Below the pieces are notes generated by a model. The model ran no database searches, had not been told where the DNA came from, and saw only the letters and a list, made by a program, of their open reading frames with translations. A program made the position numbers and the translations under genes. Of a stretch of 64,000 nucleotides of DNA, positions 2,590 through 63,300 are shown piece after piece. This stretch comes from a phage. Each line of letters opens with the position of its first letter. The first letter of the stretch is position 1. The stretch lies in the sequence record PZ171032.1. One strand, written 5' to 3'.

Positions 2590-3198
2590 ATGAAACTTGT
2601 ACATGGTGTTGGTGTTAATGATGCAGACTATCCTGTCAGGGTTTTAGACAAGGATACTGGAAAGAGAATCATGTGTCCTTTTTATATGACATGGTCAAAT
2701 ATGCTAGGAAGGTGCTACCTTAAAAACAAGAAATTTGAAGCTTATGCTATGGTAGAAGTCTGTGAAGAATGGAAAATCTTCAGCAACTTCAAGCGTTGGA
2801 TGGAAAAACAAGATTGGCAGGATAAATTTTTAGATAAAGATATCCTCTTTGAAAATAATCTTGTATACTGTCCAGAAGCGTGTATTTTTGTTCCCCGTGA
2901 AATAAACAACTTCTTTGTAGCAAGGATGCCACAAAGAGGGGAGTGTTTAATGGGAGTAAGAAGAAAAGGCCCATCTTTTGCTGCCTATTGCAAAGATGGG
3001 GTTAAGGACACGCAGGTTTATCTTGGAACCTTCCCCACGCAGATTGAGGCACATATGAGATACTTAGAATGTAAACTGCAACTTCTTAGAGATTTGATTA
3101 GAACTGTAGATGACAGTAGGTTGCTATTAGGATTACGAAGAATTGAAAATAAGATAGTTTTAGCTTTATCTTCAAAAACACCGATAGAGAATTTTTAG
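2590..3198 (+). CDS. homing-endonuclease-like DNA-binding protein with C-terminal AP2 domain
   Basis: C-terminal GVRRKGPSFAAYCKDGVKDTQVYLGTFPTQIEAHMRY fits the AP2 DNA-binding domain found in phage HNH/homing endonucleases; N-terminal YxxWxxMxxRC-type motif. No clear catalytic motif seen. Confidence 0.45.
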   Translation: MKLVHGVGVNDADYPVRVLDKDTGKRIMCPFYMTWSNMLGRCYLKNKKFEAYAMVEVCEEWKIFSNFKRWMEKQDWQDKFLDKDILFENNLVYCPEACIFVPREINNFFVARMPQRGECLMGVRRKGPSFAAYCKDGVKDTQVYLGTFPTQIEAHMRYLECKLQLLRDLIRTVDDSRLLLGLRRIENKIVLALSSKTPIENF

Positions 3199-4337: not shown

Positions 4338-5051
4338 ATGCTGAATACTAAATTAATTGACAACCTGGAAAAACTATCCCAACCTGAAAACTACCTTTGG
4401 TCTGCCAACTGGGTGGAAAACTGGAACCGTGTGGCAGCTAAAGTGAAAAAATCATACACACCATTCGAATTACAGCTTAGCTTCATTGAGGAAGAGTTCA
4501 ATGAAGTTTTGGAAGAGCTGGAGAAAGGTGATGGTGGAGATCACCTGCTAAAGGAGGCCTGCGATCTTCACGTTGTCACAAGTTATGCAGCTTATCTTGT
4601 TAATGACAATCACGAAAAGTGGTCAAACCTGTTTGATAATCCACGAGGTCTTAAGTTCAAGATCGGTGAGTTCTATGACACACTGATCGCTGCGAAAAAC
4701 ACATCCAAGCAAAGAGCGTCAGCTTACCGTTTAGCGGAGTTGTCAACAGCTTTGCTGTTCCAGCTTAGCGGCGATGTGTGCGGGATGATGCGTAAGGTTC
4801 TCAAATCGAATGACAGCAAGTTTGCACGGGTCAACCATCTACGGTATTCACACGGTGCCAGTGCAGATATGCCTGCTGAACAACTCATAGAGTTGGAGAT
4901 TAAAGATCTTGAGCGACGCTTTGATGGTCGATATGAAGGTTTTGTTGCTAAGGAAGAATTCTACAACGGTAATAAAGTTATCATATTCCTTGACAGTAAA
5001 GGTAAGATCATGAAGCCTTCGAGCTTCAAGGATGTAGCAGAGTATATTTAA
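4338..5051 (+). CDS. MazG-like nucleotide pyrophosphohydrolase domain protein (tentative)
   Basis: Acidic helix pattern FIEEEFNEVLEELEKGDGGDHLLKEACD resembles the EExxE...E..D metal-binding signature of all-alpha NTP-PPases. Confidence 0.35.
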   Translation: MLNTKLIDNLEKLSQPENYLWSANWVENWNRVAAKVKKSYTPFELQLSFIEEEFNEVLEELEKGDGGDHLLKEACDLHVVTSYAAYLVNDNHEKWSNLFDNPRGLKFKIGEFYDTLIAAKNTSKQRASAYRLAELSTALLFQLSGDVCGMMRKVLKSNDSKFARVNHLRYSHGASADMPAEQLIELEIKDLERRFDGRYEGFVAKEEFYNGNKVIIFLDSKGKIMKPSSFKDVAEYI

Positions 5052-5423: not shown

Positions 5424-5679
5424 TCTTGCTAAACCTGTAGAAGCACACCAGTTTGACGGAAGCTCTTCATCAGTATCTGATCTGCAACGGTGGATTGATA
5501 CGGGTGTGTTTACATCGTCACCTGTTCGGACCAGAGATCTTCGTCGCATGTGTGAGCTTGTAGAGCCGTTTGGTAACCTAGTCTTGTACCAGGGTGATTG
5601 GCTTGTTGATTTTATGGGGGACTGGTTGGTAATGAGTAAAGAAGAGATGTTTAAAATTTTTAAGGAAGAGGCCGAGTAA
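5410..5679 (+). CDS. hypothetical protein
   Basis: 89-aa ORF overlapping neighbours by a few nt (translational coupling pattern). Confidence 0.45.
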   Translation: MPLFNLAKPVEAHQFDGSSSSVSDLQRWIDTGVFTSSPVRTRDLRRMCELVEPFGNLVLYQGDWLVDFMGDWLVMSKEEMFKIFKEEAE

Positions 5680-39087: not shown

Positions 39088-39393
39088 ATGGCTAAATCTA
39101 AAGTTGAACTGTTCACCTCTCTTCCTTCTGACACTGCAGAGCGTGATCGCCTTCGCAAAACAATCGAAGAACTGGTGGAACTCCAACTTCAGATTAAAGA
39201 TCTGAAAGATGCCATTAAGGATATCATTCTCGTTGAGAAGCAGGATCATCTGTATTCTCCTAAATTCATCAAATCTTTGGTGGCTACAGAGTTTGATATC
39301 CGCTACGAAGCTGAAAAACGTCGCGCTAAGATTGAAGAAGAGGTTGAGCACATGTCTGAGGCAGACATTCTGTTCAAACGCTCTGTAGAATAA
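39088..39393 (+). CDS. hypothetical coiled-coil protein
   Basis: AAGGAG SD; heptad-like sequence. Confidence 0.5.
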   Translation: MAKSKVELFTSLPSDTAERDRLRKTIEELVELQLQIKDLKDAIKDIILVEKQDHLYSPKFIKSLVATEFDIRYEAEKRRAKIEEEVEHMSEADILFKRSVE

Positions 39394-40444: not shown

Positions 40445-40653
40445 TCAACACACATGCATCTGAAGAGATATCCGAAGGAGTGACCATATGTCCCTTGGCT
40501 GAGCTAGGGAAAGAGGAAAACTTCGATTCTGAAGATTCTCCATCTCCGTCCCAGGGAGACCCTGAGGCTGATGACCTAACGTGGGAGGATATCATAGCCA
40601 TCTGGTTCTCTATTATGCCTGAGCACGAAGAGTTCAGAGGTGGGAGACTATGA
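40441..40653 (+). CDS. hypothetical acidic protein
   Basis: 70-aa ORF coupled to the upstream peptide gene. Confidence 0.4.
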   Translation: MINTHASEEISEGVTICPLAELGKEENFDSEDSPSPSQGDPEADDLTWEDIIAIWFSIMPEHEEFRGGRL

Positions 40654-40774
40654 AGCACCGAGCCCACACAGGTTCCTCATGCTTTAGCATGGCCTGAAGA
40701 GGCAAACGTGCATAATTCCTGTGCATTGGAACGTATAAAACCCTGTTCACACTCTCATTTCCAGAGGAGATTTC

Positions 40775-40990
40775 ATGAAAATAGAAATATTTGGTGGGGC
40801 TGACAACACTCGTGGCCTGATTTACCTTGAATTCGATGAATCATACCTGCCAGAGGTGTTAAATATGGACTCTGTTGCTGAGGCTTTGGGGGTAAGTCCT
40901 AAAGAACTCCACTCTTGTGCTGAGATCGATGGTTGGGAAGAGACCATGAACATTGATTTCAGTGAAGTAGGTGATGAACCGCTGGACTGA
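40775..40990 (+). CDS. small acidic protein (family A-like), last gene of the rightward block
   Basis: MKIEIFGG... acidic C-terminus. Confidence 0.45.
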   Translation: MKIEIFGGADNTRGLIYLEFDESYLPEVLNMDSVAEALGVSPKELHSCAEIDGWEETMNIDFSEVGDEPLD

Positions 40991-41119
40991 CACACAATAT
41001 TAGATGTCCGGCTAAAGTGCTGGAAGCACCTATAGCATATCTTTCAACTAAATTTCCTACCACCACAATCACTTACCTCCCACACATGACTGTTTGCTTG
41101 TTTAGTGAGCAGTCATGCC

Positions 41120-41147
41120 TTGACATTCTTGCCTATCCTGATAAAAT
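41120..41147 (+). promoter_or_regulatory. candidate sigma70 promoter (TTGACA-16-TAAAAT) firing into the ORF-free region
   Basis: Read directly; no ORF of 60 aa or more follows for about 900 bp. Confidence 0.4.
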
Positions 41148-42489
41148 TAAGTTCTTCTCTTTTCTTTTACCGAGTAATTCGGGTTTTCTGTTCTCTTCGG
41201 TTTGAAGGGGTATGGAGATACACCTGAGTGAACAGGGTGAACAACCGAACATTCGGCTATGGCATTAGCATGGCGAAGCGAACGGGTGACGAAAGAGGGG
41301 CCGGAGGACACCAGTCACTGCCATATGATATATGGGTGATAACCTGAAGAGTCTGAATAAGTGTTTAAGTACCAGTCAGAGGAAAAGGTGAATGGTAGCC
41401 GAAGGGGGAGGGGGGGTTTCTTGTATCTTTAATTTGTATATTATGTATACACTTGTAAACCAATTTCATCTGAATCTGTTTACCATACAAAGTGGATTGA
41501 GACAAATATTACCTATTAAACTTGAATTATTTATAGAAAATACCACAACACACCTTAAGTCTTTGATTTTACACATAAATCCTACAGATATTCAACCTCC
41601 ATATTTAACATACTTGTAACATATCCTATACCACACCTGCCTGATCAATTTCCCCAACTACATCCTCTATATTTTACCTGCCTGTACTACCCCTGCCCCG
41701 CCGGGAGTCCCGTCATATCTGGCTTTCCAGCAAATATCCCACCAACAAATATCATTGCCTGAAGAGGGTTTCATCCCATAATACATGCCTTATCTGAAGA
41801 GCGCTTCATACACCACGTAAATTTTTTAATTGACCCCTCCCCGCCGCCGGAGAGGTTGGCTTTTCCCACACAGACCTGAAGAGTCAGCCAGAAATATCTG
41901 AATAGGCCCAATTCTACCACGATTTTGACCTGACCTACAGGGAGGCCCGAAGGGTCTAGCTTTCAGCTAGAGTCCTTGCAGGACCTACAGGAGTGCTGCC
42001 AGGCGGACGGAATGGGAATACTTCTCATTTTTATAATAATTCTCAAATATCGAGGCAGTGAGGCAAATTAATAGGTGAGGCCGTTCACACAGTGGCACAA
42101 CATTTGCAACCTATCTTGTGTGGGGGAATGATAATACCTATCATTGTGAGAACCATTATCATTACGGGCAATTTAACATAATACCCATTATGCGCACCAC
42201 TGGCGATACATACAGGGATTGATAACATGAGTTACAGTTTACGCATATAACAATTATATTTCTTATCATTTGTGTGGGATATAGTTAGCAGCCAATAGAT
42301 TAGATATTGACCTGCATACTTCCAACCGTCTAGACGTCTAAACGCCCACACACCAAGGATTATACATACACTCCTGAATGTAAACAGGGCCGCAAAAATG
42401 CTACCATACAAGCTTGTAAATTTTTCATGCAGCACTTGACAAAGAGGAGAAAAACTTGTCTGACATAATGTGACCTAACTGACACAACA

Positions 42490-42590
42490 TGACACTTTTA
42501 CACACCTATTAGTTTACACACTGGATTGTTTACATTCCTGATTGTTCACATGCTAACCATTTACATGATTGACTGTTTACACACCGATAA
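42490..42590. repeat. iteron-like array: six copies of a TTTACA(C/T)-containing motif at roughly 15-bp spacing
   Basis: Read directly: cTTTTACACAcc, aGTTTACACAct, tGTTTACATtc, tGTTCACATgc, cATTTACATga, tGTTTACACAcc. Confidence 0.6.
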
Positions 42591-42594
42591 TCAG

Positions 42595-42843
42595 CCATGC
42601 CATTCGTTTGCATGACAATAATTATACATGACAATAATCGCACTGATTATAATTAGCATGACATAATATAAAAGCAGGGCAACTATTAGCAGATCTATAG
42701 TTGCCCTGCTTGTTATGTCATGATTAACTAAATACAAGGCAACTATGATCTGATTAATAGTTTGCAGACAAACTATCACGGGGGTGATGGTTACTGCTTT
42801 TATATTATGTCGCGACTCCGTCGCGCCATGCCATTCGTTTGCA
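42595..42843. repeat. direct repeat pair CCATGCCATTCGTTTGCAT (about 230 bp apart) flanking a perfect 14-bp-stem palindrome (42673-42710) and CATGACAATAAT repeats
   Basis: Read directly. Confidence 0.6.
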
Positions 42844-43454
42844 TAGTTGCCTTATTGTTACAGGTAAAATAATTACATTATTAATTATTTCTTATCTTTC
42901 TCTTAGTCATCTAATGATTCCAGTCAGTATAGTAATGTACAGTAAACATTAGACGACTAAATATTTCTATGCTTATGATAACTTGCCGTGACAATTTCGG
43001 ACTGTTTACGAAAAATGTTGACACCTGGGCGGGTTTATGTTATGCAGTTTACACGAATAATTATTTCATACAGGTATTGACTATTCCGTTATTCTGTGGT
43101 TGGAATAAATACTTTGCAGGCTATAGAATGGTGTGCGTACGTGAATTCTAAGATCTGGCGGCTATAGTTACACCCGATTTTTCACGTAGAACACGCTTTT
43201 TGGTTTGTGTAAGTGTATGACTTATAAAGATTTTTAGTTGTTGACAGGATATTGAAGATGTGCATCAGGTTAAATTTTGTGCAATAGCTGCAGTACGTGC
43301 ATTTTTGGAAGGAAAAACGTGTAAAAATGGTCCTGCTACCACATAATGAAAGATTATGCAATAGCTATTTTATATGTATATTTGTACAGTGTGTGGGATT
43401 GATGGCTCGTCAATTATTCCACTTGCTGGGTGGGGCCGTTTGTGGTAGGAGGAG

Positions 43455-43486
43455 AGCAGACAAAAAGAAAGGGGCCTAAGCCCCTT
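43455..43486 (-). terminator. rho-independent terminator for the leftward block (AAGGGGC-ttag-GCCCCTT + TCTTTTTGTCTG on minus strand)
   Basis: Read directly, just downstream of the last minus-strand gene. Confidence 0.7.
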
Positions 43487-43505
43487 GATAATGTAAATTG
43501 TTGTA

Positions 43506-57897: not shown

Positions 57898-58739
57898 CAA
57901 TAGTTCAGGTAGGTCGTTAAGCTACCCCGCACCATTACGTGCACAGCCATACAGTTTCCTGTATGGATCGGACTATCTCACTACCTTGTTACCAAGGCAC
58001 CTCCCATTTCGACCGCACTTGCTGGCCTACTCTACTCGCTTCTTCGCACCAATTTATGTTGGCGCTATGCTTTCGATAGTCTCTGAACGTTACTACCAGG
58101 TGTAGTTTTTAGAGATATGTTTCCACTGTCTTCTTTGCTTTATGGCTCTGACCGTCTCATAAGGATACCCAAGATCCCTAATCTCGCATTGTCGTAAACC
58201 ACTTTGTAACAGTTCGCAAATCTCCGTTACCTCATCCTCGGTCAGTACAGCGTTGGCATTATACTCACCGACTGGCCTTACTCTGAGGTCATTATCATAA
58301 GCGTGTTTGATATTTCCACCAGGGGTGGTCCATTCAAGGTTCCAGTATGCATTGTTGTATTTGTTTCCGTCCTTATGGTTCACCCATGTGAGCCTTTCAG
58401 GATCAGGGTTTGATACAAAGCATTCAGCAACCAAGTGGTGGACACCTTTTGTGCACTGCTTCCCCTCGATGAACATGGTTACGCAAAGGTAACCTCGACC
58501 ATTATCAAAACAGAACATTGTTGTATGATCACGTTTCGATAAAGGTATTGTTCCATCATCAAACACGGTATATCCGTGATAATCAACTGATCTAGCCATT
58601 TTAACTACACCCCTTTAGTCTTCGCTGCGGATTAGCATATTGAGCTTTTACCATGTTTAGGTGTAAAAGTCAACTTAGCCTTCCCGTCAATTAAAGAGGT
58701 TTTCGACGTGCATCACTGCACGAAGCCACAATGTTATTT
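57898..58739 (-). mobile_element. group I intron in the DNA polymerase gene (842 nt) carrying an HNH homing endonuclease ORF
   Basis: Exon 1 ends in U (CAT), intron ends in G (..TTG). Minus-strand R-like GTTCAGAGACTATCG directly after the HNH stop and S-like AGATAGTCC core elements. Frame and motif C are restored across the junction. Confidence 0.75.
58093..58599 (-). CDS. HNH homing endonuclease (intron-encoded)
   Basis: VHHLVAECF...VNHKDGNKYNNAYWNLEW HNH_3-type motif; AAAGGGGTG SD. Confidence 0.75.
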   Translation of the reverse strand: MARSVDYHGYTVFDDGTIPLSKRDHTTMFCFDNGRGYLCVTMFIEGKQCTKGVHHLVAECFVSNPDPERLTWVNHKDGNKYNNAYWNLEWTTPGGNIKHAYDNDLRVRPVGEYNANAVLTEDEVTEICELLQSGLRQCEIRDLGYPYETVRAIKQRRQWKHISKNYTW

Positions 58740-61163
58740 ATGGTAATAGATAATACGACGAACACCTTCATCGTACCACCCACGCTTCACCATTTGGTGG
58801 TGCATAAGTATCCCAACTAAGTCACACAGCGATGCACCACCATTCTGTTGGTATGCATTAAGTAAAGAGTGTTTAGATCGGGTCCAGATGGCATGACCAT
58901 CAAAAGAGTAGATAAACTTCTTACCCGTTGCTTCCCAGAATTTCTCCAGATCCTCTTTACGCCCCTTAAGACCAGGGTTGGCATCCCAAAGTGCATCGAT
59001 CACCCTTTGTCCCAACTCTGGAGAGATGTCCAGCATATCTGCAACTTTATCTTTTTGTGCCCCGTACATAACCCCATACGTGATAGGTTTACCGTCGTTA
59101 CGAGACACCTCTCTGCCTGCTACTTTTGTATATGCCTCAGCATTGTTTTGGTGTGCGTCCCCGTTACTTACAACATCATAATACAAGCCGTTGTCGAACT
59201 CAAAGGCACCCCAAGCCCCGATAAGCTGCTCTAAGTTGGACCCGTCAATACCGATCTCAAAGTATCCTGGAGGAACACCCCACAGACTACGCATCTCTTT
59301 ACCCATAACCACTTTAGGAGATGGTTTAGGCATGTTTGCACAAATACTGTGTTTCTGTCTGGAAGTGTTTGTTAATCCAGAGCTTTTAGCAGGAAGCTTA
59401 TGGTCAATCTTCAAACGTGGGTGATTAAGAAGACCAGTATCAACCTTATCCTCCTTAATTGGATCAAGGACCGATCTGCGGTTTCGCAATGATAACCACA
59501 AGACGATATCTTTAGCCATCTCTCCGTTCAATTTTTCAAGATTCGGACATAGGTGTCCAAACGTATCTTTCAGTTGCGGAGAAGTAATAAGTGCTCTGGC
59601 TTTTCTACGTATTTTCCCGAATACTTCCTTTTTAATCCTTTCGGAGTTAGGAAAGCTTCGGAACTTGTGCACGGTTGTCTGGAACTTAGCATCAGTTTTG
59701 TTCCAGAAGTTGATAATCAGGTCACAATACTCTGACTCTAAAAGCTCGTCCATATATGCATATACTCGTGCATCAACATCTGCATCAGGTAGAGCTTTCT
59801 TCTTGCTGTCTTTAGTTACATCCTTAGTTCTCCACATTGTCGGAAGCCAACCAGCACTGATCAGGTATCGCTTAATATCGTCCTGATTGCTGATTTTCAT
59901 AGGTATCTTGCAGTCAGGCATTCGCTTCTGCTGCAGATCGCTTATTGCCTGATCCATCAGCTCTTTAGGTAAAGGTTGTGGTGTGGAGGTGCCCTTAATA
60001 TAACCTCTCAAGAAATCAGCCATCTTGTCTGGGTCTTTGCAGCCCATCTCTTCACACCATTTTATCCCCATTTTACTGACATCTCCTGTGGAGGTAAATG
60101 CTCGCTTAGGTGGGGCTTTGAACTCTAAAGCGCTCATGTCTACAGGATAGCCAAGCTTATCTTTTAACCATTTCCAACCATTATTGGAGATTGTCCCATC
60201 TTGGTTAAACGGCTTTTCAGGGAACTTGGGCCGCTGAGACATTGACAGCTCTTTTAAAGGTAGTTGTGGTTCAACACGATCAGCTATTTCTTTCATCCAC
60301 GCATCGCAACGGTCACGTAAAGCAATAGCCCCGTCTATGTCGAAATACACACCCTGACGGGCCTGCAGCTCCATCAGGAAGTGCTGCAGCATGCCTCGGC
60401 GTAATGCGTTCTTCCAGGTGATCTTCTTGAACCCTTTTGGCTTCTCTTTGGCAGGATCGTACATAAAGTTCTGCATGTCAGATTTGCCGTAGAATACACC
60501 TTTTGATTCCGCTACCAGCTCTTTCCAGAGCAGCTCCTGGATGATAACGTCCTCGAATACACGATCCACATACTTCCACAGCGGAAGATCGCGCCAGTCA
60601 TCAATTTGAACTTTCTGGTTACCAAGAGCGTAGCCCCATGCCATAAGGCCGTGAGGACCAACAGGCTGCATTTTCTTAGTAACCGGGTTGAATACAGAGT
60701 CCGGACAACCTTTTGGTAAAGGGCGATCAGGCCACAAGATTCGGCTCATCGCCAACGTATCGAACAGGTTAACCTGGTGGTCGTTGATAGTCCCCATACA
60801 TTTAGGATCACGGAACATATCAAAATGAATACCGGATAATCTCTCCATCAGCATAAAGTCATAACTGTAGCAGTTATGGCAGTTCAAAGCTGTTGGTGAC
60901 CAGTCGGAATTTCCTGTAAGCCAACCTTCCAACTCCGAAAAATCTGCTATGCGAACTTCAAAATCTTTATAAAGAGTTTTCTTTGCCAGAATAAAGTTCT
61001 TAGCCTTCTCTATATCCTCCTCGGAGTAGTGTGTGCGGTCATTTAGAGGAAGGAACAGCATAAAACGGTTCTTATTCAGCTCTTTAAACAGGCCGCAATG
61101 ATAATAAAGATCTGGGTCTTCCAGCAAACCGGATGACTCAAAATCGAACGACCACATGCTCAT
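58740..61163 (-). CDS. DNA polymerase (family A, T7 gp5-like), exon 1 of 2
   Basis: 3'-5' exo motif FDFESSG; LMAWGYALGN, GIDGSNLEQL (motif A), KPITYGVMYGAQ (motif B) colinear with recalled T7 gp5; track ORF stops just before motif C. Confidence 0.85.
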
Positions 61164-61221
61164 ATACAGTTCTCCTTAAAGGGGAGGCGGTTGTACTACC
61201 CCTCCCACTCTTTGTTAAACA

Positions 61222-63300
61222 TTAAAAAGGTGTTTCATCATCCTCAAAACCAGGAACATGGTCAGAGGACGGATCATCGTACTGGAGGTCTTCCTGCGTG
61301 TCAACAGGCTTAACAGTAGGAGTTACAACCTTATCAGCCACAACCTTACCCATAGGTGTTTCTACAACTGCATGCTCCTGATCCTCAAACATAGCCTGAG
61401 GTCTCCAAACAACCTCCCCACCTTCTCCATCTGTAAACATTTGCATTTCTTTGTCCCAGTACCAATTACTGGCATCATGGAACTTACCTGTATGTGGGTC
61501 CATAACCAAAGTGTCTGCAATACCTAAAGTTTTTGCTGGACGGTTTTTAAGACCTACCAGTCGGACACGCCCACGAGAACGATCCACCATTTCTTCGGCC
61601 TCGACACCTATGACTACCCAACTCAACTGTTCAAGCCCAGCCGATCCTCGCAAATTCTCTTTTCGCACAGGATACCAGAAAGGTAACGGGTTACCATCCT
61701 TGTCCTTAGGAGGCACAATCTCTGTACGTTTGAGGTGAGCGATCACCAAGATAAACACATTGAACTGCTTACAAAACGCAGCCAGCTGGGTCATAGCCAT
61801 GTCCAGTTCTTTTCGCTCATCCTTAACATTAAGCCCCGAAATTACCATAGACAGGTGATCCAGCACAATATAACGGCAATGGTACAGGCAAACCATTTGC
61901 TTAAGCTTGGTAATCAACTCGTCCACCGGAATAGACCCGAAATGTTTGAACACTTTGATTTTTCCAGCTTTTGCCCATGATTGGTGAATCTCTGCGTGTT
62001 CTTGATCAGTTAAAAACTGGCTAGGATCTTCAACAAACTCTTTAACATCAAACCCTAGCTGGTTTGCATACAAGGAGTTAATTGCTTCCTCTGGGTCCTC
62101 CTCAAGATGGATCATGCATAGACGATCATCCTCTTCATAGTCATCGGCCTTCGGGCATGTCGGGTCCATCAAGTATCTTGCAATACAATGTTCCAGTTTT
62201 TTAGCTACAGTTGTTTTACCGCCCCCTGATGGCCCTGTAAGCATTACGAGTGTCCCTTTGTGCAAGCCTTTTAGCATTTTTTGCAGTTTTGGAAACTCTG
62301 CGCTGATATCTACCCCGTTGGAAGTCTTTTTCCGCAAAGATTCGATAGAGAAGTCTTCTAAATCCGACACAGCATCAGGCACATACTTAACAGGATGCCG
62401 GAACATGTTTACAATATCTTCCAGCTTTTTAGCCTTTAGCATGTCACGGATATCTTTTACACCGTCAGGATCGTTTACCTCACCGGGGTATTCTACGTGG
62501 TAAACGTTATCAGCCATCAAAAATGCTGCGATATTGTGCGTGGCCTCAACACCTTTAATGACGTGTTTTTGCTTCTCTACCTCGTTAGCTGCATCGTTAT
62601 CCATTGCCAGCACAACTGTTCCATAGCTACGGATAAACTTCTCATTGTTTGCAAAAGTATCTACTGCGTTTGCACATCCACAGTTAATTCCAACAAAAGG
62701 CAGGCATGGTTTTCCTGCCAGATCGCCACCGTTGATAACTGCATCGATCCCGTCCTGGACCTCTTTAGCCCACTGTTTCACCTTTGCCGGGGCTTTAGCG
62801 TTGGTGAGAATCCCTTTTACTTGTATCTGATATGCAGCCTGCCATGCTGCAATAACATCACCTTCTCCCTCACAAACGTTAATCTGCTTACGGTTGTTGG
62901 AAGATGCACACAGCTTTTGACCAAACATCTGAGAGTTAGCCTTTACTATGCCAACAACGGAGAAATGGCCTCTTTGCTCTTTAGGAATCGTCCAGTCACG
63001 CTTTTTGAAACCGGACAGATTTCCGTAGCGGTCGTAATATGGGAAATATGTTGCAGTGACTGTCACACCATCTTCTTGGGATAATGCTGATCGCACACCA
63101 AAATATTGTGCAGCCATCAGACCGATATTTTGTTGTGGGACAGGGACAATTTTAGTATTTTCTAAAACAGTCTCTACAGTTTCAACTTCTTTTTCATCAC
63201 GATAGTCTCGTTTCACACTTCCCCCACTTTTATACTTAGTTGCTTTCGGGTTTGGCTCACCGAAACGGTTGTATGCAGATGCCATAAATTTACTTCCCAT
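61222..63300 (-). CDS. DNA primase-helicase (T7 gp4-like: TOPRIM + DnaB-family helicase)
   Basis: TOPRIM VCEGEGDVIA; Walker A LTGPSGGGKTT; Walker B IVLDHLS; acidic C-terminal tail ending ...EDDETPF. Confidence 0.85.
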   Translation of the reverse strand: MGSKFMASAYNRFGEPNPKATKYKSGGSVKRDYRDEKEVETVETVLENTKIVPVPQQNIGLMAAQYFGVRSALSQEDGVTVTATYFPYYDRYGNLSGFKKRDWTIPKEQRGHFSVVGIVKANSQMFGQKLCASSNNRKQINVCEGEGDVIAAWQAAYQIQVKGILTNAKAPAKVKQWAKEVQDGIDAVINGGDLAGKPCLPFVGINCGCANAVDTFANNEKFIRSYGTVVLAMDNDAANEVEKQKHVIKGVEATHNIAAFLMADNVYHVEYPGEVNDPDGVKDIRDMLKAKKLEDIVNMFRHPVKYVPDAVSDLEDFSIESLRKKTSNGVDISAEFPKLQKMLKGLHKGTLVMLTGPSGGGKTTVAKKLEHCIARYLMDPTCPKADDYEEDDRLCMIHLEEDPEEAINSLYANQLGFDVKEFVEDPSQFLTDQEHAEIHQSWAKAGKIKVFKHFGSIPVDELITKLKQMVCLYHCRYIVLDHLSMVISGLNVKDERKELDMAMTQLAAFCKQFNVFILVIAHLKRTEIVPPKDKDGNPLPFWYPVRKENLRGSAGLEQLSWVVIGVEAEEMVDRSRGRVRLVGLKNRPAKTLGIADTLVMDPHTGKFHDASNWYWDKEMQMFTDGEGGEVVWRPQAMFEDQEHAVVETPMGKVVADKVVTPTVKPVDTQEDLQYDDPSSDHVPGFEDDETPF

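Follow-up and report, generated by a model that had tools for sequence, protein, structure and literature searches.

The gene-free region of an rV5-like coliphage as a probable concatemer junction with a 459-bp direct terminal repeat

Introduction

In T7-type packaging, each concatemer junction carries one copy of the terminal repeat; cutting by the terminase is site-specific, and DNA synthesis supplies the second copy (PMC10438801). In T7 itself, the RNA polymerase paused at the concatemer junction contacts the terminase proteins and starts maturation and packaging (PMC3276506). Here we describe a region, 41000-43500, of a 64-kb stretch of phage DNA (sequence record PZ171032.1, 64,000 nucleotides, called the window throughout). 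We read it, with a probability of about 0.88, as the concatemer junction of a Vequintavirus genome, where its physical ends are joined, with a direct terminal repeat (DTR) of 459 bp.

At this locus, the rV5 genome map carries a grey 'non-coding' box between genes 163 and 164 (Kropinski et al. 2013, PMC3606486). The authors reported that the GC/AT skew changes at this box and that this change coincides with the change of transcription direction; neither function nor termini were assigned to it (PMC3606486). EdH4 and HdK5 were described as having 'short terminal redundancies of 458 bp' (Korf et al. 2019, PMC6563267), and a terminal repeat of 459 bp with a fixed packaging start was given for Vequintavirus (Dias et al. 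2020, PMC7471380). For KPP-1, PhageTerm gave a DTR of 514 bp, qualified as 'T7 type', and twofold coverage was reported (PMC9862379). Published accounts of the Gotham, HdK5 and EdH4 repeats are confined to length and fixed start, without the flanking arrays, the left-flank motifs and the ultra-conserved block described below.

Results

A terminal repeat with fixed boundaries

When 41000-43500 was compared by BLAST with 50,697 phage records, 122 matches were obtained at 86-95% identity, about 100 of them over the whole query and essentially all from Vequintavirus. By these matches the source phage is a Vequintavirus, that is an rV5-like coliphage of the Vequintavirinae. The element on which our interpretation is centred is the following:

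42002-42460, no strand: direct terminal repeat of 459 bp, defined by record boundaries, the repeat copies of relatives and the published length

Position 1 of the Gotham, HdK5, EdH4, ECP2309, bov11CS3 and bov25_3 records corresponds to 42002 of the window. The ECP2309 record ends at the equivalent of 42460, where EcoIv14a_Aya and Pr121LW start on the reverse strand. Listed GenBank records that start or end exactly at 42002 or 42460 thus number at least eight and come from about six groups of submitters; in these listed records the termini are invariant to the nucleotide and non-permuted. In Gotham (MT682716), a repeat_region is annotated at 1-459 and 136567-137025, and its two copies are identical at 459 of 459 positions; ECP2309 and EdH4 likewise carry two copies, the same sequence being present at both virion ends of these close relatives. 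Since the record boundaries are fixed and an exact repeat occupies both ends, we take 42002-42460 to be the DTR, with cut sites between 42001 and 42002 and between 42460 and 42461.

The repeats of Gotham, HdK5 and EdH4 are the same element as that of the window (92-97% identical), with the 459-bp extent and the same flanking genes. The boundaries read ...GCTGCCA/GGCGGACGG... on the left and ...AAAACTTGTC/TGACATAATG... on the right (a slash marks the cut), and the 30-mers on the inner side of the boundaries in the window and in Gotham differ at one base only, in the left 30-mer, which is T in the window and C in Gotham. The window holds a single DTR copy, with the DNA found before Gotham's right copy on one side and the DNA found after Gotham's left copy on the other. 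What the window shows is the replicative or assembly-collapsed form: the right arm up to 42001, a single repeat copy, then the left arm from 42461. A reading made from the sequence alone (the sequence-only reading) had offered a replication origin, a packaging site or a noncoding RNA (ncRNA) locus for this region. The packaging site was essentially the correct option: the region includes the DTR together with the two positions cut by the terminase. Its description of a convergence zone between two transcription blocks is valid for the circular or concatemer map; on virion DNA, these blocks are the two ends of the chromosome.

Conservation and the integrity of open reading frames (ORFs) were followed in an alignment of eleven genomes, the window and ten relatives. 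Both DTR boundaries adjoin the least conserved DNA of the region: conservation falls to 0.41-0.73 at 41900-42000 and to 0.60-0.76 at 42500-42650, to be compared with about 0.93 for neighbouring genes.

Several points weigh against this assignment. The termini of this particular phage are deduced from relatives, which are 92-97% identical to it across the DTR. For one Vequintavirus, PhageTerm called headful (pac) packaging with partial permutation (PMC13211470), and for PVP-SE1 and phiTE, terminal redundancy and circular permutation were concluded in older restriction-based work. Finally, the terminase gene lies outside the 64-kb window, and it is from sequence comparison that we infer terminase roles for the left-flank motifs and the arrays.

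Some other features touch the repeat. In phage I29 (ON286975; L014, 2672-3300), 584 bp equivalent to 41635-42218 are duplicated, across the left DTR boundary; either the DNA is truly rearranged or the repeat has caused an artefact of assembly. Inside the DTR, Fur-box-like sites at 42031-42045, 42129-42143 and 42147-42161 match the 7-1-7 form TGATAATNATTATCA with 2 mismatches, a form matched only six times in the whole 64 kb. In most close relatives, an A-to-G change makes the 42129 site weaker, and AATGA(G/A)AATCATT motifs, also Fur-box-like, are found in the DTRs of KB57 and PVP-SE1. The palindrome CGTCTAGACG, listed by the sequence-only reading, is present at 42327-42336, at chance level: about 2.4 palindromes of 10 bp are expected in 2.5 kb by our own estimate. 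It is broken in four of the ten relatives and, in view of this breakage and of the expected count, we treat it as fortuitous and not as a meaningful element.

A zone free of genes

The DTR is embedded in a noncoding zone with the following borders and spacers:

40775-40990, plus strand: last rightward gene (71 aa, hypothetical), taken from the ORF list and annotated in relatives; left border of the noncoding zone
41421-41690, no strand: AT-rich spacer, 30% GC and 8% G, conservation 0.86-0.98
42845-43468, no strand: ORF-free right spacer from the repeat module to the end of the leftward operon, conservation 0.86-0.96, its ORFs of at least 45 aa broken in relatives
43469-43486, minus strand: predicted intrinsic terminator of the leftward unit, with a terminator annotated in Alma, Gotham and Murica

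The gene blocks run outward to the ends of the linear chromosome, hence the lack of genes in between. The longest ORF in 40991-43468 is 75 aa, as compared with 83 +/- 19 aa in shuffled sequences, and this is the lowest 'longest ORF' among all 2.5-kb tiles of the window. Each ORF of at least 45 aa in the zone is interrupted in relatives by a frameshift or a stop. The only ones open in all ten relatives are three of 35-39 aa, that of 39 aa in almost invariant DNA and the other two in DNA conserved at about 90-95%. The earlier statement that no convincing ORF exists there is therefore confirmed, no ORF of 40991-43468 being conserved. The 71-aa gene on the left border is intact in nine of ten relatives, and a Pfam search with it gave no match. 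In rV5, the equivalent locus is 104,021-106,603.

The density of repeats pointed out before was equally borne out, the repeats being non-random, and nearly every element then listed is found in its place or a few bases away. This applies to the leftward terminator, expected around 43470 and found at 43486-43469, and to the AT-rich stretches, represented by 41421-41690. ARAGORN detected no tRNA or tmRNA in the window, and an internal BLAST showed no second occurrence of the region's elements elsewhere in the 64 kb.

About 18-19 of the matching GenBank records (MG0656xx) are titled 'Campylobacter phage', with 87-95% identity to this E. coli rV5-like DNA. These entries are probably mislabelled or contaminated.

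The left flank and its counterparts in other genera

Two elements precede the left boundary of the DTR:

41759-41900, plus strand: left-flank module with CTGAAGAG copies, a C-rich-loop hairpin (41834-41855) and GAAATATCTG (41891-41900)
41940-41989, no strand: strain-specific 50-bp insertion between ACCTACAGG repeats, with two small hairpins, 12 bp before the left DTR boundary

Copies of CTGAAGAG start at 41759, 41794 and 41876, with another at 41344. The four repeats recognised in the sequence-only reading correspond to exact copies of CCTGAAGAG at 41343, 41758 and 41875 and to TCTGAAGAG at 41793, all on the plus strand. Two more CTGAAGAG copies, at 40460 and 40694, are located upstream of the interval then considered. 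CCTGAAGAG has six exact copies in the window for 0.65 expected, a number reached by none of 100 shuffles; four of the six lie within 40693-41883, all on the plus strand. We considered CTGAAGAG as a possible hammerhead core (CUGANGA) and rejected it: Rfam gives no match, neither GAAA nor the stem arrangement is present, and in three cases the window copy is inside a gene. CTGAAG(A/T)G is present on the transcribed strand over the last 1.5 kb of the right arm in three genera (L019, about 4393-4840; L020, 1167-1547), and some of its copies form the loop of a terminator-like hairpin (GGGGCCtgaagaGGCTCC).

To compare these elements beyond Vequintavirus, the equivalent locus of KB57 (Mydovirus) was located via the published KPP-1 coordinates. 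In KB57, a Klebsiella phage, genes switch from rightward to leftward around a 1.8-kb zone with one dubious small ORF, and PVP-SE1 (Seunavirus, a Salmonella phage) has a 2.2-kb ORF-free zone at the same position. The KP12 record starts at position 4975 of L019, and the DP record starts in the reversed orientation, with a repeat_region, at position 5488, which delimits 514 bp, exactly the length that PhageTerm gave for the KPP-1 repeat. Between the window and the other genera, only two collinear pieces are left, both inside the repeat (E = 1e-4 and 0.02).

The two boundaries are nevertheless homologous in Vequintavirus, Mydovirus and Seunavirus: GTGCT..A/GRCGGAC on the left and, on the right, TTGTAAATTT..CTTGACA followed by a purine-rich run and TGTY, after which comes the cut. 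In front of the left boundary, the three genera also display the same order of motifs, namely CTGAAG(A/T)G copies, a sigma-70-like promoter, a C-rich-loop hairpin and GAAA(A/T)ATCTG. The stem of the hairpin is CCTCC/GGAGG in two genera and CCAC/GTGG in KB57. Because this order is kept without alignable sequence, we argue that these motifs are functional cis-signals. From this comparison, they appear as the best candidates for terminase recognition, and the left-flank module as a candidate pac-like recognition region.

The Mydovirus and Seunavirus loci thus resemble that of the window by their convergent, nearly ORF-free zone of 1.8-2.2 kb, their homologous boundaries and their left-flank motif order. 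They differ from it by a repeat of 514-515 bp and by a promoter about 300-450 bp from the repeat instead of 880 bp. They also have no counterpart of the 41046-41416 block, and the arrays inside their left copy are different. Judged from these sequences, the DTR arrangement is subfamily-wide. Further left, the 101-aa 'transcriptional regulator' gene (39088-39393) has homologues in KB57, 4MG and CR3, which sit in a different neighbourhood.

The ACCTACAGG duplicates (41933 and 41983) and their hairpins, put forward in the sequence-only reading, do exist but are not conserved and simply bound the strain-specific insertion. Among the eleven aligned genomes, this 50-bp insertion is carried only by this phage and Alma; rV5, Murica and FV3 have none at 41940-41989, and other relatives have a different one.

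An ultra-conserved block upstream of the repeat

Further upstream lies a block of quite another character:

41046-41416, plus strand: ultra-conserved noncoding block with an 8-bp inverted repeat, a promoter and about 263 nt, ending exactly at the G5AG7 tract
41120-41147, plus strand: sigma-70-type promoter TTGACA-16-(TG)TAAAAT, hexamers invariant in all relatives
41404-41416, plus strand: G5AG7 tract, 3' edge of the block; G5AG5, G5AG6 and G4AG6 (ECP2309) in other phages

Conservation of the block is about 1.0, as against about 0.93 for neighbouring genes, which makes it the most conserved noncoding DNA of the region. Its identity is 96.6-99.4% in every full-length Vequintavirus match listed, no listed Vequintavirus record falling below 95%, and the mean column identity is 98% across 12 distinct variants. 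Its edges are sharp in the divergent lineages L007 and L025, where the flanks are less than 85% identical. The promoter-like site previously noticed at 41120 matches the consensus at 11 of 12 positions and has in addition a TG extension. It fires rightward, toward the DTR, 882 bp downstream. The 8-bp inverted repeat (41085-92 / 41110-17) abuts its -35 hexamer. At the other edge, the polymorphism of the G tract frameshifts the 75-aa ORF 41392-41619 in all ten relatives.

These properties raise the possibility, which we hold to be tentative, that the 41120 promoter drives an ncRNA of about 263 nt (41154-41416). Such an RNA could be a stable one with a regulatory or anti-defence role, or could act in cis, in priming of DNA synthesis or in coupling transcription to cutting of the junction. 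The proposal applies to a single part of the region and does not conflict with the terminal repeat. In its favour are the near-consensus extended -10 promoter and the conservation just described, higher than that of neighbouring genes and with edges that remain sharp between divergent flanks. Moreover, conservation peaks outside the only intact ORF, with about 3 variable columns in some 145 nt apart from one 1-base insertion and the G-tract lengths. Of the variable columns, about half are located within the loops of two hairpins (41245-41256 and 41321-41335) or next to these loops, and pairing is possible between a pyrimidine-rich 5' end and a purine-rich 3' end. A TTGACG-type promoter directed toward the DTR is present in KB57 and PVP-SE1 as well.

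On the other hand, the folding energy is no better than that of shuffled sequences (z = -1.16), and none of the 85 predicted pairs shows a compensatory change, in an alignment 98% identical that offers too little variation. The 3' edge has no intrinsic terminator, L025 does not conserve the T-run that follows the G tract, and other genera have no detectable counterpart of the block. The Rfam scan that had been recommended gave no match in the window at the gathering score (Rfam 15) and, at E up to 10, only two chance-level matches in the region (E = 2.9 and E = 6). No similarity was found between 41050-42001 and complete E. coli genomes, and host mimicry is thus unsupported. A protein-anchored search of IMG/VR and exact-pattern scans of IMG/VR and of a metagenome collection brought 3, 2 and 5 loci, too few and too similar for covariation.

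R-loop origins are known from ColE1 RNA II, the T7 primary origin and mitochondrial CSB II. The G5AG7 string is the same as the human mitochondrial CSB II transcript motif, and in the window 270 bp of 30% GC DNA adjoin the G5AG5-7 tract. More speculatively, and with still less confidence than for an RNA as such, the block may be a Vequintavirus-specific cis-acting transcription unit with a strong promoter of the host type, of which the G-rich RNA of about 263 nt would stop or stall at G5AG5-7, persist as a hybrid with the DNA and prime rightward synthesis by an R-loop; it may otherwise represent a new family of trans-acting ncRNA. On the minus strand at 58734-63300, the window encodes a DnaB-like helicase (691 aa) beside an 808-aa protein with a sub-threshold match to family A polymerases (27.9 bits for a cut-off of 34.3). 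In the rV5 paper, the homologue of the latter is identified as the DNA polymerase (PMC3606486). This gene content suggests a T7-like set of replisome genes.

Arrays and a palindrome module beyond the right boundary

The DNA on the other side of the DTR is repetitive and variable:

42461-42494, plus strand: TGACA/TGACC units at about 10-bp spacing, beginning at the first base after the DTR; number and sequence vary in relatives
42497-42581, plus strand: six TT(T/C)ACA units ('iterons') of a family close to ACTGTTTACR plus 5-6 nt; conservation 0.60-0.73
42594-42844, no strand: optional module between 20-nt perfect direct repeats GCCATGCCATTCGTTTGCAT (42594-42613 and 42825-42844)

The six TTTACA-type units listed before are indeed present, with a spacing of 16, 16, 16, 15 and 16 bp and not of 15 bp throughout. 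The cluster of TT(T/C)ACA units is unique in the 64 kb; in 200 simulations, the count never rose above 4 units per 100 bp. Tandem Repeats Finder reported nothing at a score of at least 30 in the region, as the arrays are too degenerate. Among close relatives, array copy number ranges from about 2 long units (LL12, FFH2) to about 10 (rV5), and unit sequences differ.

The optional module contains three copies of ATGACAATAAT, an 18-bp perfect inverted repeat (42660-77 / 42794-811) and GGCAACTAT sites. GGCAACTAT has four exact copies in 42678-42851, the last overlapping the end of the module. The duplicated repeat and the palindrome claimed by the sequence-only reading are both there, with a stem of 15 bp (42672-42686 / 42697-42711) rather than 14; this palindrome is nested within the 18-bp inverted repeat. 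Its right arm is mismatched in nine of the ten aligned relatives, with no compensatory change. FV3 (L012, about 2936-3084) has a single 20-mer, lacks the 231-bp palindrome module and carries a different short-repeat array in the place of 42465-42824 of the window. This suggests that the module was inserted or deleted by way of the 20-nt direct repeats. Near 42650, rV5, LL12 and Murica share an insertion (e.g. CCAGGTGACCTTTGGTCACCCCTTCGGGTG), and rV5 and LL12 have a second one near 42712; these extra insertions are GC-rich hairpins. Together with the 41940-41989 insertion, they suggest that small hairpin cassettes are often gained and lost in this zone.

An iteron-type origin, in which the TTTACA array, the palindromes and AT-rich DNA would bind an initiator and unwind, could coexist with the terminal repeat. 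We consider it unlikely. The region does share with the lambda ori and plasmid oriV tandem short direct repeats near AT-rich DNA and palindromes: the periodic array is statistically real, there are a perfect palindrome and inverted repeats as well as a 30% GC stretch, and the cumulative GC skew peaks near 41000. However, neither the number of units, from about two to about ten, nor their sequence is conserved. The palindrome module is missing in the viable FV3 and its arms do not co-vary, and the AT-rich stretch is 800 bp away from the array. Only two loose matches to the DnaA box and one IHF-like match were seen, and the flanking genes contain no initiator-like Pfam domain. Iteron origins further differ in that here the array starts exactly at the packaging cut site. 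The turn in GC skew, a check proposed earlier, is real, yet it cannot separate an origin from a switch of transcription direction; it coincides with such a switch, as the rV5 authors concluded (PMC3606486). In short, conserved number and spacing of units and a nearby initiator are both lacking, arrays and palindromes behave unlike origin elements, and the origin option is left unsupported.

Two weaker explanations

A missed gene is still less probable. The frame in question is the 39-aa ORF at 41228-41347, starting with GTG and preceded by GGAG 10 nt upstream. It is intact in all ten relatives, has a plausible Shine-Dalgarno sequence and shows three common polymorphisms at third codon positions. 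Yet the peptides agree less well (92-97% identity) than the DNA does (97.5-99.4%), codon 34 varies between D, G and S, and changes are also seen at codons 8 and 9. By our estimate, about 6 non-synonymous differences stand against 4 synonymous ones, which is not the pattern of purifying selection. DNA outside the ORF is more conserved than inside, tblastn found no homologue outside the genus, and an intact frame of 39 codons is expected by chance in DNA that is 98% identical.

Lastly, the example of phiTE (Vequintavirinae, Certrevirus), in which an expandable noncoding repeat mimics the ToxI antitoxin (PMC3475682), could suggest that the tandem arrays of the window, also variable in copy number, encode an RNA similar to its pseudo-ToxI; we hardly give this any credence, as the phiTE locus is not equivalent (it lies between tRNA-Tyr and a structural gene, in a same-strand block), the units are of 10 and 15-16 nt and not ToxI-like repeats of 36 nt (PMC3475682), Rfam gives no match, and the array has no promoter directly upstream and abuts the DTR boundary exactly.

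Discussion

Under the concatemer-junction interpretation, packaging in this phage could proceed as in T7. The terminase would recognise sequence in the junction area of the concatemer and cut both repeat boundaries, and the repeat would be duplicated by DNA synthesis, leaving a copy at each end of the packaged chromosome. The likeliest recognition and cut signals would be CTGAAGWG, the C-rich-loop hairpin and GAAAWATCTG, together with the conserved boundary sequences. The hypervariable arrays just inside the repeat copies would be the counterpart of the CCTAAAG arrays of T7, accessory in nature and not origin iterons. They might serve as bending or spacing elements, and their fast change could result from replication slippage beside a site that is repeatedly nicked and copied.

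The T7 sequence was inspected for this comparison. Its DTR is of 160 bp, and a CCTAAAG array with 13-bp spacing starts 15 bp inside the left copy. A shorter array is located just before the right copy, and the promoter phiOR, 549 bp upstream, fires toward this copy. Both phages thus have an exact, short, fixed-end DTR with one copy per junction. In both, an array lies immediately inside the left copy, the right copy is preceded by an array that is variable or short, and a promoter located some hundreds of bp upstream is directed at this right copy.

The resemblance does not extend to sequence, in which no similarity is detectable, nor to dimensions: DTRs are of 160 bp in T7 and 459 bp in the window, and array units of 13 bp and of 10 and 16 bp, respectively. 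The phages themselves are a podovirus of 40 kb and a myovirus of 137 kb. The left-arm genes run toward the chromosome end in the window and away from it in T7. Unlike T7, rV5-like phages have no phage RNA polymerase, and the promoter of the window is of the host sigma-70 type. The coupling of transcription and packaging in T7 is accordingly only a suggestive analogy for the 41120 promoter, weakened by the fact that the T7 polymerase is phage-encoded.

The terminal repeat itself is already known, published and annotated for close relatives. The only new observations are the cross-genus motif map and the ultra-conserved block.

Placing the chromosome ends at 42002 and 42460 fixes the true gene order and orientation, with both small-gene blocks running outward. 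Annotators should add the second repeat copy, and knowledge of the ends explains why assemblies of these phages open at arbitrary points. A false origin candidate is also removed. From the comparison of three genera, the signals that the terminase is likely to recognise can be confined to about 250 bp on the left side of the repeat and to the two boundary sequences. These would be useful for packaging-competent vectors and in the engineering of these therapeutic phages, whose lysis host range within E. coli is broad. As for the ultra-conserved promoter-driven block, without assigned function in about 120 sequenced relatives, it is the one piece that may lead somewhere new.

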